Numbered from the stretch's first letter, positions 6,676 to 47,088 are shown. The stretch is 64,000 nt of DNA from Escherichia coli (GCF_041886205.1 NZ_CP169029.1); one strand, 5' to 3'. Notes: generated by a model from the letters alone, not told the origin. A program made the numbers and translations.

Positions 6676-6841
6676 TGTTTAATCCTTTTGGTTTAAACCA
6701 GATGAAGCATCTTACGCTTACGCCAAAAAAGAAAGCAATTAACGGCGTATGACTTTGCAGATAATTGTGACAAAGCTCTCTATTGACGTAATCCCAGACT
6801 TATAAGGGAGATACTCGCATTGGTGTGCGCTCACGACAGGT

Positions 6842-6874
6842 AAAAAAAAACCTGCCAGCGATGGCAGGTTTTTT
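6842..6874 (-). terminator. rho-independent terminator downstream of typA (hairpin CCTGCCAGCGATGGCAGG flanked by A/T runs)
   Basis: perfect inverted repeat 6851..6868 followed by a U-run on the minus-strand transcript. Confidence 0.6.
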
Positions 6875-6891
6875 ATAACTAAAAAACGAAA

Positions 6892-8715
6892 TTAATCGTC
6901 TTTCGGTGCGCGGTTGGCGCGACGACGATCGTTTTCAGTCAGGTGACGTTTACGAATACGGATAGAGGTCGGAGTCACTTCTACCAGTTCGTCATCATCG
7001 ATGAACTCCAGAGCTTGTTCCAGAGTCATGCGGATAGGCGGAACCAGAACAACGGCTTCGTCAGTACCGGAAGCACGCATGTTGGTCAGTTTCTTACCAG
7101 TCAGGCAGTTTACCGTCAGGTCGTTAGAGCGGCTGTGAATACCGATAATCTGACCTTCGTAAACTTCTGCACCGTGACCGAGGAACAGCTTACCGCGATC
7201 CTGCAGACCGAACAGCGCGAACGCGACCGCTTTACCCTGACCGTTAGAGATCAGTACGCCGTTCTGACGCTGACCCACTTCACCCGGACGTACGTCGTCG
7301 TAGTGGCTGAAGGTGGAGTACAGCAGACCAGTACCGGAAGTCATGGTCATGAACTCAGAACGGAAGCCAATCAGACCACGGCTTGGGATCACGTAGTCGA
7401 GACGTACGCGGCCTTTACCGTCTGGATTCATGTTTTTCAGGTCGCCTTTACGTTCGCCCAGCGCCTGCATTACAGAACCCTGATGCTGTTCTTCAACGTC
7501 CAGAGTCACGTTTTCATACGGCTCTTGTTTACGACCGTCGATTTCACGGAAGATAACTTTCGGACGGGATACCGCCAGTTCGAAACCTTCACGACGCATG
7601 TTTTCGATCAGAACAGACAGGTGTAGTTCGCCACGACCAGAAACGCGGAACGCATCAGCGTCTTCGGTTTCTTCTACGCGCAGCGCAACGTTGTGTACCA
7701 GTTCTTTGTTCAGACGATCCAGGATCTGACGAGACGTTACGAACTTACCTTCTTTACCGCAGAACGGCGAGGTGTTAACGCAGAAGAACATAGAAACGGT
7801 CGGCTCATCAACGGAGAGTGCCGGCAGCGCTTCAACGTTTTGCGTGTCGCAAACGGTGTCAGAAATGTTCAGTTCGCCCAGGCCCGTGATCGCCACGATA
7901 TCGCCAGCTTCCGCCAGATCGGTTTCGATACGTTCCAGACCGAGGTGGCCCAGCACTTTACCGACTTTCGCGTTACGGGTTTTGCCTTCGCTATCGATGA
8001 TAGTGACCTGCTGGTTCGGCTTCACTTTACCGCGCTTGATGCGGCCAATGCCGATAACGCCAACATAGCTGTTGTAATCGAGCTGAGAAATCTGCATCTG
8101 GAACGGACCGTCAAGGTCAACGTCCGGCGCAGGAACGTGATCAACAATCGCCTGATACAGCGGGGTCATGTCTTCCGCCATATCTTCGTGGTCCAGACCC
8201 GCGATACCGTTCAGCGCAGAAGCGTAAACGATCGGGAAGTCCAGCTGCTCGTCGGTCGCGTCGAGGTTAACGAACAGATCGAATACCTGATCCACAACCC
8301 AATCAGGACGCGCGCCAGGGCGGTCAACTTTGTTGATAACAACAATCGGCTTCAGGCCGTAAGCAAACGCTTTTTTGGTTACGAAGCGCGTTTGCGGCAT
8401 CGGGCCGTCAAATGCGTCAACCACCAGCAGCACTGAGTCTACCATGGACATTACACGTTCAACTTCACCACCGAAGTCGGCGTGCCCCGGGGTATCAACG
8501 ATGTTGATACGGTAATCATTCCATTTGATAGCGGTGTTTTTCGCGAGGATGGTAATCCCACGCTCTTTCTCCAAATCGTTGGAGTCCATCACGCGCTCTT
8601 GGGTTTCGGCACGAGAGTCGAACGTACCGGATTGTTGGAGCAGCTTGTCTACCAGGGTGGTTTTACCATGGTCTACGTGCGCGATGATGGCGATATTACG
8701 CAATTTTTCGATCAC
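6892..8715 (-). CDS. typA: ribosome-associated translational GTPase BipA/TypA
   Basis: 607-aa ORF with GTPase motifs ([18 protein letters not shown]); divergent from glnA. Confidence 0.95.
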
Positions 8716-8866
8716 AACTTTGCCTCAGGCATTAGAAATAGCGCGTTATTGTACACGGATTAATCGCACTACAAAACAGGATCACAAACATCCTCCGCAA
8801 ACAAGTATTGCAGAGTCCCTTTGTGATCGCTTTCACGGAGCATAAAAAGGGTTATCCAAAGGTCAT

Positions 8867-8947
8867 TGCACCAATATGGTGCTTAATGTTTCCATTGAAG
8901 CACTATATTGGTGCAACATTCACATCATGGTGCAGCCCTTTTGCACG
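8867..8947 (+). promoter_or_regulatory. NtrC (GlnG) enhancer sites upstream of glnA (TGCACCAatatGGTGCt, GCACtatatTGGTGCA and a third partial site)
   Basis: matches to the TGCACCA-N3-TGGTGCA dyad at about 8867..8883, 8900..8916 and 8929..8947. Confidence 0.75.
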
Positions 8948-8988
8948 ATGTTAAGCATGATAACGCCTTTTAGGGGCAATTTAAAAGT

Positions 8989-9004
8989 TGGCACAGTTTT
9001 CGCT
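8989..9004 (+). promoter_or_regulatory. sigma-54 promoter glnAp2 (TGGCAC-N5-TCGCT)
   Basis: -24 GG / -12 GC element TTGGCACAGTTTTCGCT about 85 bp upstream of the glnA ATG. Confidence 0.8.
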
Positions 9005-9087
9005 TTATCTTTTTTACGGCGACACGGCCAAAATAATTGCAGATTTCGTTACCACGACGACAATGACCAATCCAGGAGAGTTAAAGT

Positions 9088-10497
9088 ATGTCCGCTGAAC
9101 ACGTACTGACGATGCTGAACGAGCACGAAGTGAAGTTTGTTGATTTGCGCTTCACCGATACCAAAGGTAAAGAACAGCACGTCACTATCCCTGCTCATCA
9201 GGTGAATGCTGAATTCTTCGAAGAAGGCAAAATGTTTGACGGCTCCTCGATTGGCGGCTGGAAAGGCATTAACGAATCCGACATGGTGCTGATGCCAGAC
9301 GCATCCACCGCAGTGATTGACCCGTTCTTCGCCGACTCCACCCTGATTATCCGTTGCGACATCCTTGAACCTGGCACCCTGCAAGGCTATGACCGTGACC
9401 CGCGCTCTATTGCGAAGCGCGCCGAAGATTACCTGCGTTCCACTGGCATTGCCGACACCGTACTGTTCGGGCCAGAACCTGAATTCTTCCTGTTCGATGA
9501 CATCCGTTTCGGATCATCTATCTCCGGTTCCCACGTTGCTATCGACGATATCGAAGGCGCATGGAACTCCTCCACCCAATATGAAGGTGGTAACAAAGGT
9601 CACCGTCCGGCAGTGAAAGGCGGTTACTTCCCGGTTCCACCGGTAGACTCGGCTCAGGATATTCGTTCTGAAATGTGTCTGGTGATGGAACAGATGGGTC
9701 TGGTGGTTGAAGCCCATCACCACGAAGTAGCGACTGCTGGTCAGAACGAAGTGGCTACCCGCTTCAATACCATGACCAAAAAAGCTGACGAAATTCAGAT
9801 CTACAAATATGTTGTGCACAACGTAGCGCACCGCTTCGGTAAAACTGCGACCTTTATGCCAAAACCGATGTTCGGTGATAACGGCTCCGGTATGCACTGC
9901 CACATGTCGCTGTCTAAAAACGGCGTTAACCTGTTCGCGGGCGACAAATACGCAGGTCTGTCTGAGCAGGCGCTGTACTACATTGGCGGCGTAATCAAAC
10001 ACGCTAAAGCGATTAACGCCCTGGCAAACCCGACCACCAACTCTTATAAGCGTCTGGTCCCGGGCTACGAAGCACCGGTAATGCTGGCTTACTCTGCACG
10101 CAACCGTTCTGCGTCTATCCGTATTCCGGTGGTTTCTTCTCCGAAAGCACGTCGTATCGAAGTACGTTTCCCGGATCCGGCGGCTAACCCGTACCTGTGC
10201 TTTGCTGCCCTGCTGATGGCCGGTCTTGATGGTATCAAGAACAAGATCCATCCGGGCGAAGCCATGGACAAAAACCTGTATGACCTGCCGCCAGAAGAAG
10301 CGAAAGAGATCCCACAAGTTGCAGGCTCTCTGGAAGAAGCACTGAACGAGCTGGATCTGGACCGCGAGTTCCTGAAAGCCGGTGGCGTGTTCACGGATGA
10401 AGCGATCGATGCGTACATCGCTCTGCGTCGCGAAGAAGATGACCGCGTGCGTATGACTCCGCATCCGGTAGAGTTTGAGCTGTACTACAGCGTCTAA
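9088..10497 (+). CDS. glnA: glutamine synthetase
   Basis: 469-aa ORF, recognised GlnA sequence including the adenylylation region. Confidence 0.97.
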
Positions 10498-10584
10498 TAG
10501 TTGAAGTTGTACTACCCGGCGCAACAACGCCGGGATTTAGTTGCCGTGGAAACTTTCAGCCCATCTCTGCATGGGCTTTTTTCT
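10498..10584 (+). ncRNA. glnZ: glnA 3'UTR, candidate 3'UTR-derived sRNA (GlnZ-like) ending at the glnA terminator
   Basis: 3'UTR with hairpin CCCGGCG..CGCCGGG (10515..10534) and terminator GCCCATCTCTGCATGGGCTTTTTT (10558..10584); sRNA assignment is from literature, not visible in sequence. Confidence 0.35.
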
Positions 10585-10670
10585 CCGTCAATTCTCTGAT
10601 GCTTCGCGCTTTTTATCCGTAAAAAGCTATAATGCACTAAAATGGTGCAACCTGTTCAGGAGACTGCTTT

Positions 10671-13378: not shown

Positions 13379-13480
<102 letters not shown>

Positions 13481-15634: not shown

Positions 15635-15702
15635 AATGGTTCGTCTTTTAGCCGTTTTATTCAGTATAGATTTGCGGCGGAATCTAACAGAAAGCAAGCA
15701 AA

Positions 15703-15945
15703 GAAAAAAGGCGACAGATTACTCTGTCGCCTTTTTTCCTGACTCATAACCCTTAACGGGTCTTACAATCCTTGCAGGCCGCCAACACACCCTGTTTTTC
15801 CTTTAGCCGGAACAATCCGTGTTGATTCCATTTCCGTTTAATTACGTCTCCGGACGTTTGTCTTCCTGACAATCCTCTGTCTTCGCCTCCTGGCGCTCCT
15901 GACCCTCATCCTGAGTCATTGTTCCTGTTAGCGTCCTCGCTCTAT
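15703..15945 (-). ncRNA. csrC: CsrC small RNA (CsrA-sequestering)
   Basis: reverse complement matches CsrC from ATAGAGCGAGGACGC.. to the terminator GGCGACAGAGTAATCTGTCGCCTTTTTT; multiple GGA motifs; between yihI and engB. Confidence 0.85.
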
Positions 15946-16973: not shown

Positions 16974-17082
16974 TAAAAAACGCCCCAGTCATTACTGACT
17001 GGGGCGGCTAAAATATTCAGCCAAATCCGATTACGTGAAGTAAAAGGTCTGAAAGATAGAACATCTTACCTCTGTACCCTAC
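16974..17082 (-). ncRNA. spf: Spot 42 small RNA
   Basis: reverse complement matches Spot 42 (GTAGGGTACAGAGGTAAGATGTTC...) through the terminator CCGCCCCAGTCAGTAATGACTGGGGCGTTTTTTA. Confidence 0.9.
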
Positions 17083-17229
17083 GCGACTAACTTTACTCTT
17101 TTTTGTTCAGTTCAGAAAGCACTTTTTGTAATTTTTTTTCAGTTGTTGCATAGGAATTTCTAATAGCCATCACAAAACGTGACAGCTTATGTTGCTTACT
17201 TACGAAAAAAGGGCATGTTCAGGCGAATC

Positions 17230-26177: not shown

Positions 26178-26297
26178 ATGCCTGGCAGTTCCCTACTCTC
26201 GCATGGGGAGACCCCACACTACCATCGGCGCTACGGCGTTTCACTTCTGAGTTCGGCATGGGGTCAGGTGGGACCACCGCGCTACGGCCGCCAGGCA
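26178..26297 (-). rRNA. rrfA: 5S ribosomal RNA
   Basis: 120-nt match to E. coli 5S rRNA (reverse complement ATGCCTGGCAGTTCCCTACTCTCGCATGGGG...). Confidence 0.97.
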
Positions 26298-26389
26298 AAT
26301 TCTTTTTTATCAGACCGCTTCTGCGTTCTGATTTAATCTGTATCAGGCTGAAAATCTTCTCTCATCCGCCAAAACACCTTCGGCGTTGT

Positions 26390-29292
<2,903 letters not shown>

Positions 29293-29475
29293 TCACAACC
29301 CGAAGATGTTTCTTTCGATTCATCATCGTGTTGCGAAAATTTGAGAGACTCACGAACAACTTTCGTTGTTCAGTGTTTCAATTTTCAGCTTGATCCAGAT
29401 TTTTAAAGAGCAAAACTTCGCAGTGAACCTTTGCAGGTACACTCTGAAGTATTTTTTATTTAATCACTACAGAGA

Positions 29476-29551
29476 TGGTGGAGCTATGCGGGATCGAACC
29501 GCAGACCTCCTGCGTGCAAAGCAGGCGCTCTCCCAGCTGAGCTATAGCCCC
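29476..29551 (-). tRNA. alaT: tRNA-Ala (UGC)
   Basis: 76-nt match to GGGGCTATAGCTCAGCTGGGAGAGCGCCTGCTTTGCACGCAGGAGGTCTGCGGTTCGATCCCGCATAGCTCCACCA. Confidence 0.97.
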
Positions 29552-29593
29552 ATAACATGTAGTTAAAACCTCTTCAAATTTGCGGTGCAAATT

Positions 29594-29670
<77 letters not shown>

Positions 29671-29738
29671 GTAGAGGTTTTACTGCTCATTTTCATCAGA
29701 CAATCTGTGTGAGCACTGCAAAGTACGCTTCTTTAAGG

Positions 29739-31280
<1,542 letters not shown>

Positions 31281-39208: not shown

Positions 39209-39392
<184 letters not shown>

Positions 39393-44845: not shown

Positions 44846-47088
<2,243 letters not shown>

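Follow-up and report, generated by a model that had tools for sequence, protein, structure and literature searches.

The 372-bp divergent spacer between typA and glnA, at positions 8716..9087 of the Escherichia coli sequence analyzed here (64,000 nucleotides, one strand, herein referred to as the window), is the control region of the glnALG operon, in the allele carried by O157:H7 and by about 40% of the sequenced E. coli. We estimate the probability of this reading at about 97%. The spacer is bounded by the GTG start codon of typA at 8715 on the minus strand and by the ATG start codon of glnA at 9088 on the plus strand. The first-pass annotation, made from the sequence alone, had described a divergent typA-glnA control region with an NtrC enhancer and the promoter glnAp2, and this description is borne out: the mapped region of K-12 is the ortholog of this spacer, with differences at 7 of 372 bp. 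Being the glnAp2 region itself, it belongs to the class of sigma-54/NtrC enhancers. By sequence alone, the matches to the sigma-54 and CRP consensus do not exceed chance; that these sites are real follows from this orthology, from published binding data for the exact sequence, and from a geometry conserved in 109 Enterobacterales spacers. The glnA control region itself is already known, and the annotation of it holds nothing new. The locus is a rediscovery of one of the best-characterised bacterial enhancer-promoter systems and is mainly of use as a positive control.

The genes on both sides of the spacer were identified by NCBIfam models. The typA (bipA) coding sequence, at 6892..8715 on the minus strand with its GTG start at 8715, matches the ribosome-dependent GTPase TypA model over its full length (NF007583, 1441.9 bits), in agreement with the RefSeq annotation of the identical O157:H7 locus. 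The glnA coding sequence, at 9088..10497 on the plus strand, matches the glutamate--ammonia ligase model (NF007006, 1048.6 bits) and is annotated likewise in RefSeq. Directly downstream of glnA are located glnL (NR-II, 700.8 bits) and glnG (NR-I, 1051.5 bits). All four proteins, TypA, glutamate-ammonia ligase, NR(II), and NR(I), score above the NCBIfam equivalog cut-offs. The rpoN gene lies outside the window.

A 601-nt query spanning the spacer has matches in 5425 of the 5426 complete E. coli genomes. The spacer is 100% identical to that of O157:H7 strains, for which RefSeq annotates the same genes. Alignment with K-12 MG1655 gave 365 identical positions of 372, with 7 substitutions and no indels, and positions within the spacer are converted by a single rule (K-12 position = 4067122 - w, where w is the window position). 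The substitutions, given from K-12 to the window, are 8875 C>T in the spacer of NtrC site I, 8927 G>A in site III, a cluster at 8951/8953/8954 in the right half of site IV (GGTGCG>GTTAAG), 8997 A>T between the -24 and -12 elements, and 9062 C>A in the glnA 5'UTR. The locus, gene order, and 372-bp spacer length of the K-12 glnAp1/glnAp2 region are the same as in the window, and its five NtrC sites, CRP site, -24/-12 element, and both starts are positioned in the same way.

Five NtrC sites are described in K-12, two strong ones centered at -140 and -108 and three weak ones centered at -89, -66, and -45 (PMC1865078, PMC3870243, PMC5159524). With +1 set at 9015, the published positions land exactly on dyads in the window. 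These dyads were scored against TGCACCA-N3-TGGTGCA, that is, over 14 positions. Strong site I (8867-8883, TGCACCAATATGGTGCT; center 8875, -140) has 1 mismatch of 14, and strong site II (8899-8915, AGCACTATATTGGTGCA; center 8907, -108), which overlaps the glnAp1 start, has 2 of 14. Weak site III (8918-8934, ATTCACATCATGGTGCA; center 8926, -89) has 5 mismatches of 14 with a perfect right half, TGGTGCA, and this half-site is conserved at about 90% across the Enterobacterales spacers. The weak site IV, called the 'governor' site (8941-8957; center about 8949, -66), has 7 mismatches of 14 in its best register vs. 5 of 14 in K-12. Weak site V (8962-8978; center 8970, -45) has 6 mismatches of 14, and its position was taken from the literature (PMC5159524).

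Scans for NtrC, sigma-54, and CRP sites were performed as consensus searches with allowed mismatches and dinucleotide shuffles, not with position-weight matrices. NtrC dyads with no more than two mismatches were found three times in the 64 kb vs. approximately 0.3 expected, which is about 10-fold over expectation. Counted over both strands, the same dyads give 6 vs. 0.60 expected, and only 1 of 100 shuffles reached that number. All three dyads are located in the gln locus, being sites I and II and the glnLp site at 10633. In contrast, site III does not exceed background by sequence, with 150 window positions matching equally well, and sites IV and V, with 6-7 mismatches, are not distinguishable from background by sequence. 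At least three NtrC-type dyads within 8867..8947 had been proposed in the first-pass annotation. The dyads are present and two of them exceed chance, but the third (8918-8934) does not, and the literature has five sites rather than three. Scoring above background, which had been suggested as the check on these sites, separated sites I and II from chance when run as consensus scans and did not separate the sigma-54, CRP, and weak NtrC sites. As a refutation test it is too weak in both directions, and here its answer would have been ambiguous. Except for these sigma-54, CRP, and weak-site motif frequencies, which are not above background, the sequence features expected of the sigma-54/NtrC enhancer class were found.

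Binding of NtrC was shown by EMSA with a 200-bp probe from EHEC TW14359 centered on the box at 8868-8883 (PMC4287178), and TW14359 and the window do not differ over 8596-9196. With dyads centered at -140 and -108, upstream of the -24/-12 element, and with the cognate glnL and glnG genes present, sites I and II fit the pattern of an NtrC enhancer. The same type of dyad was found at glnLp, the NtrC-repressed sigma-70 promoter in the glnA-glnL spacer, where a site at 10633-10649 with 1 mismatch overlaps the -10 hexamer TATAAT at 10629-10634. The repression logic is the same as that of sites I and II over glnAp1. Unlike the glnA region, glnLp has a single site and no sigma-54 promoter, and it lies downstream of glnA.

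The sigma-54 promoter glnAp2 is located at 8989..9004 on the plus strand (TGGCACAGTTTTCGCT). The element TGGCAC-N5-TCGCT, which the first-pass annotation had placed at these positions, was found exactly there. With +1 at 9015, the GG at 8990-8991 corresponds to -25/-24 and the GC at 9002-9003 to -13/-12. Compared with TGGCAC-N5-TTGCW, the element has one mismatch (TCGC for TTGC), while the GG and GC are intact and exactly 10 bp apart. The sigma-54 consensus is not enriched in the 64 kb, since only 1 match with intact GG/GC and no more than one mismatch was found on both strands vs. 2.23 expected. For the spacer on the glnA strand, approximately 0.007 chance matches are expected. Because the motif frequency is not above background, the glnAp2 call rests on context and conservation, including the presence of the motif in all 109 species, and not on the motif score. 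Dependence of glnAp2 on sigma-54 and NtrC is known from the K-12 literature (PMC1865078, PMC3870243), and the K-12 gSELEX peaks for NtrC (97%) and for the RpoN holoenzyme fall in this spacer (PMC8743547).

The glnAp2 start at 9015/9016, derived from the -108 and -140 site centers, gives a 73-nt glnA 5'UTR (9015..9087, plus strand) with the Shine-Dalgarno sequence AGGAG at 9074-9078. According to the glnA entries of Table S1 in PMC7967276 (Thomason), the dRNA-seq starts of glnA in K-12 are 4058106 and 4058220, which convert to window positions 9016 for glnAp2 and 8902 for glnAp1. The two derivations of the glnAp1 and glnAp2 starts, from literature site positions and from dRNA-seq, agree within 1-2 nt. 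The glnA 5'UTR is not unusually structured (z = 0.28). A further typA-strand start in the same table, K-12 4058043, corresponds to window position 9079 on the minus strand; it falls within the glnA 5'UTR shortly before the start codon and is antisense to the ribosome-binding site of glnA.

The promoter inventory of the first-pass annotation was incomplete: glnAp2 had been placed, but glnAp1 and its CRP site at 8822-8837 had not. The glnAp1 promoter is described as a weak promoter lying 115 bp upstream of glnAp2 (PMC1865078). The promoter scan gave no plus-strand match in the region. The best hexamer reading, TTGCAC-18-TTCCAT, matches at 7 of 12 positions, which fits the description of a weak promoter. 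This weak sigma-70 promoter occupies 8866..8902 on the plus strand, with an inferred -35 TTGCAC at 8866-8871, an inferred -10 TTCCAT at 8890-8895, and a start at about 8900-8902, within the enhancer. The CRP site is located at 8822..8837 (TGTGATCGCTTTCACG) and has 1 mismatch to TGTGA-N6-TCACA. Its center, 8829.5, is at -70.5 to -72.5 from glnAp1. The spacing of this TGTGA-N6-TCACG element fits a class I position near -71.5, and the site is conserved across Enterobacterales. The CRP consensus is not enriched over background in the 64 kb. The classical CRP site upstream of glnAp1 is needed for glnAp1 activation (PMC1865078), whereas a recent preprint from the Reitzer laboratory states that CRP binding in the glnA region has never been footprinted or determined experimentally. 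A role of CRP as a class I activator of the typA-proximal promoter discussed below is not supported, as the site would be near -88.5 or -77.5, off-phase. Additionally, a 21-nt imperfect inverted repeat (GATCACAAAC.../...TTTGTGATC) was observed at 8780-8828. Within it, the right CRP half-site is paired with a second conserved TGTGATC element. GATC (Dam) sites occur in each arm and are maintained throughout the order, and the loop has a constant length but a variable sequence.

For the analysis of conservation, the region of the glnA start codon was scanned in one genome per species. In total, 120 loci were found, 108 of them with a recognisable typA start upstream, and these 108 spacers together with the window form the set of 109. 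The divergent typA-glnA order is conserved throughout Enterobacterales, and most Enterobacteriaceae have spacers of 366-380 bp. The sigma-54 motif was found in 109 of 109 spacers and at least two NtrC dyads in 105 of 109. Among these 105, the spacing between sites I and II is 32 bp in 91, and the distance from the center of site II to TGGCAC is 82 bp in 82. The CRP center is located 44.5-46.5 bp from the center of site I in 86 spacers. The 5'UTR between promoter and ATG, on the other hand, ranges from 71 to 270 nt across species. An activator acting by looping requires just this, a fixed enhancer-promoter geometry with no constraint on leader length. The glnA regions of Salmonella, Citrobacter, Klebsiella, and Enterobacter share with the window the 32-bp dyad pair, the 82 bp to TGGCAC, the CRP site, and the typA-proximal block; in the Enterobacterales, the right half of site IV differs from genus to genus, and the 5'UTR length is variable as well.

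The features, the K-12 orthology, the EHEC identity, and the geometry were observed here, and the looping, activation, and governor steps that connect them are taken from the established K-12 literature. Under nitrogen limitation, NtrB would phosphorylate NtrC, and NtrC~P would assemble on the strong dyads I (8867-8883) and II (8899-8915). Through DNA looping and ATP hydrolysis, NtrC~P would then convert sigma-54 RNA polymerase at 8989-9004 from the closed to the open complex, and transcription of glnA would start at 9015/9016. Because sites I and II overlap the -35 region and the start of glnAp1, NtrC would repress glnAp1. CRP-cAMP at 8822-8837 (about -71) would activate glnAp1 under carbon limitation. 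The weak sites III-V (8918-8978) would be filled only at high NtrC~P and would cap the output of glnAp2, acting as a 'governor'.

A putative sigma-70 promoter directed toward typA was found on the minus strand at 8951..8985, with -35 TTTAAA at 8985..8980, a 17-bp spacer, -10 TATCAT at 8962..8957, and a start at about 8951. The TTTAAA-17-TATCAT element is the only promoter-like match in the region. The corresponding K-12 start, 4058171, is reported to be confirmed by dRNA-seq and Cappable-seq in the compilation of PMC7967276, which assigns it to the 5' end of an RNA named typA5' / G0-10705. It converts to window position 8951 on the minus strand, 6-7 nt downstream of TATCAT and 65 bp from the glnAp2 start. 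Given this mapped start, sites I-III, glnAp1, and the CRP site lie inside the typA-ward transcript. The enhancer DNA itself is thus transcribed, and the glnAp1 and typA-ward transcripts overlap in antisense, the latter being antisense to the first approximately 50 nt of the glnAp1 mRNA. The enhancer had been said to lie between the two divergent start points; this does not hold for the one mapped typA-ward start at 8951 and would hold only for a predicted typA-proximal promoter. No start-site data for the typA-proximal promoter were found in published material, and a literature search returned nothing specific on the bipA promoter or UTR.

In 78 of 109 species, the typA-ward hexamers stand at an unchanged distance from TGGCAC. 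Most discriminators are rich in GC, with GCGCACCA occurring in 33 species. This promoter overlaps the weak NtrC sites IV and V, its -35 hexamer ends 4 bp from TGGCAC, and GCATGATAACGCC shows higher conservation than do the dyad positions of these two sites. The conservation credited to the weak NtrC sites may therefore partly reflect the typA-ward promoter.

Three of the seven differences from K-12 cluster in this segment, at 8951/8953/8954, where GGTGCG in K-12 is replaced by GTTAAG in the window. These positions fall in the right half of site IV and also at -1 to -4 relative to the typA-ward start. The GTTAAG allele was found exactly in 2205 of the 5426 complete E. coli genomes (41%) and GGTGCG in 3209 of 5426. 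The GGTGCG form is common to Salmonella, Citrobacter, Enterobacter, Kluyvera, and others, and the GTTAAG form was found only in E. coli. Thus, the GTTAAG allele is derived, as the outgroups carry the K-12 form. The change removes the TGGTGC-like half-site of site IV (7 mismatches vs. 5 in K-12), and site IV is predicted to be weaker in the window allele than in K-12. In the typA-ward discriminator and start, GCGCACC in K-12 corresponds to GCTTAAC in the window. The GTTAAG allele also lifts an inverted repeat with 8875-8886 from 7/12 to 10/12 complementary bases, which hints that the three-base change may have arisen from a single templated mutation event. With the altered site IV and the 8997 A>T substitution between the -24 and -12 elements, the quantitative behavior of the region may differ from that in K-12. 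The derived variant separates K-12-type strains, in which most of the cited experiments were performed, from O157:H7-type strains, and could serve as a natural test of both the governor model and any cross-talk with typA. The dimorphism and the back-to-back promoter offer leads of modest value; no discussion of either was found in the searchable literature.

The segment 8941-8985 could be conserved mainly as the typA-ward sigma-70 promoter, standing back-to-back with glnAp2. In that case, this promoter would also be subject to repression by NtrC~P bound at sites IV and V and by sigma-54 polymerase at -24, and the dimorphism at 8951-8954 would chiefly change its discriminator and start. This reading complements the glnALG control function and does not exclude it. 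Its basis is the TTTAAA-17-TATCAT element as the sole sigma-70-like match in the region, a start at 4058171 reportedly backed by two 5'-specific data sets and a PlatProm prediction (PMC7967276), the constant offset of the hexamers in 78 of 109 species with a GC-rich discriminator in most, and the position of the -35 hexamer 4 bp from TGGCAC with GCATGATAACGCC conserved better than the site IV and V dyads. However, the promoter scan gave 1 match vs. 1.1 expected by chance, and the start at 8951 was mapped in K-12, which has the other allele. In the published data, typA is listed only as a neighbor of the gSELEX peak (PMC8743547), and a cross-talk between NtrC and typA expression would be hypothetical; the typA-ward RNA may also stop as a species of 72-108 nt instead of reaching typA. 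Moreover, a governor role of sites III and IV has mutational evidence in K-12 (Atkinson 2002, as cited in PMC3870243 and PMC5159524). We consider the reading possible but lean against it.

A stronger form of this idea appears doubtful. In it, the IV/V segment (8941-8985) would double as a conserved typA-ward sigma-70 promoter, so that occupancy by NtrC~P and sigma-54 polymerase would set both the glnA output and the transcription of a structured typA leader (typA5'/ES222), and the three-base allele would be a natural regulatory variant affecting both genes. If true, the ribosome-assembly GTPase TypA would be coupled to nitrogen status.

The typA-ward leader contains a match to the Rfam family of ES222 sRNA (RF02755) at 8904..8797 on the minus strand, found by cmscan with 133 bits vs. 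a gathering score of 62 (E 8e-26) over the full model 1-108. No relevant literature on ES222 was found. By K-12 annotation, typA5' (G0-10705, RegulonDB) corresponds to 8880-8951 on the minus strand and overlaps ES222 (8797-8904) but does not coincide with it. Both are read as pieces of one typA-ward leader. The 239-nt leader starting at 8951 folds with z = -4.7, largely by pairing of NtrC dyads I and II with each other. Two further Rfam candidates, mir-4703 and rliD, were rejected as being at the E-value threshold and far below their gathering scores; they arise from the palindromic NtrC sites. In Table S1 of PMC7967276, typA5' is also listed at 4056194-4056265, next to glnL, and given as convergent transcription. 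These coordinates equal those of G0-10705 (4058171-4058242) minus 1977, which is the offset between U00096.2 and U00096.3, and thus one RNA was apparently entered twice.

Alternatively, the minus-strand transcript could be the product of an independent trans-acting small RNA gene (ES222 / G0-10705) and not a typA leader. The full-length ES222 match with 133 bits, the RegulonDB-type annotation of a 72-nt RNA, the z-score of -4.7 for the 239-nt leader, and the antisense position of the transcript relative to the first approximately 50 nt of the glnAp1 mRNA are in agreement with such a gene. Nevertheless, these RNAs were removed from EcoCyc in 2019 because evidence was lacking, and the original name typA5' denotes a 5'UTR fragment. 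No clear intrinsic terminator was found, although two hairpins weakly resemble one. The pairing of dyads I and II accounts for much of the predicted stability, as it would with any similar palindromes, and the typA-proximal part shows no covariation. An independent small RNA gene is therefore improbable.

The notion that the motifs of the spacer are chance matches in an ordinary intergenic sequence, with no regulatory role, is hardly credible: although the sigma-54 and CRP consensus matches occur at shuffled-sequence frequency and 150 window positions match the consensus as well as the third dyad, the strong dyads are about 10-fold over expectation and clustered in the gln locus, the spacer is orthologous to an experimentally mapped K-12 region, the identical sequence binds NtrC in EMSA (PMC4287178), and the presence and spacing of the motifs are conserved in 109 species, so that the fixed geometry and the published binding data refute it.

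Besides the control elements of the glnALG operon, the spacer contains an ultra-conserved typA-proximal block at 8716..8800. On the minus strand, this block holds TACAAT (8753..8748), ATTAAT (8764..8759), and the Shine-Dalgarno sequence GAGG. Nearly every column has the same base in at least 90% of the 108 other Enterobacterales spacers, from Escherichia to Yersinia and Photorhabdus. No other part of the spacer, including the gln machinery, is as well conserved. The sequence GTGTACAAT was found in 109 of 109 spacers. In 105 of 106, it stands at one and the same distance from the CRP site, despite a variable sequence in between. When 36 diverse sequences were folded with RNAalifold, 16 pairs with 0 compensatory changes were obtained in 8716-8800. 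As there are no compensatory changes, the block looks like a case of primary-sequence conservation, and in view of the missing covariation a structured RNA element is not claimed. The block may be the main, proximal promoter of typA, its 5'UTR, or both.

Several further features were observed elsewhere in the window. The glnA-glnL spacer (10498-10670) is 112 bp shorter than in K-12, and the K-12 insertion in the glnA 3'UTR, annotated as GlnZ sRNA, is absent from the window. The short glnA 3'UTR ends at the terminator GCCCATCTCTGCATGGGCTTTTTT, at approximately 10559-10584. A weak Rfam match to the Yersinia RNA Ysr49 (34 bits) was found in 10498-10670. Other Rfam matches at gathering level are located at 6839-6907, 13400-13477, 15692-15945, 16974-17092, 26180-31280, 39261-39338, and 46483-46734. 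They represent STnc370 at the 3' end of typA, two naRNA4/REP elements, CsrC, Spot 42, an rrn operon, and the 'Erse' sRNA. The rrn operon is complete, with two tRNAs and StyR-44.
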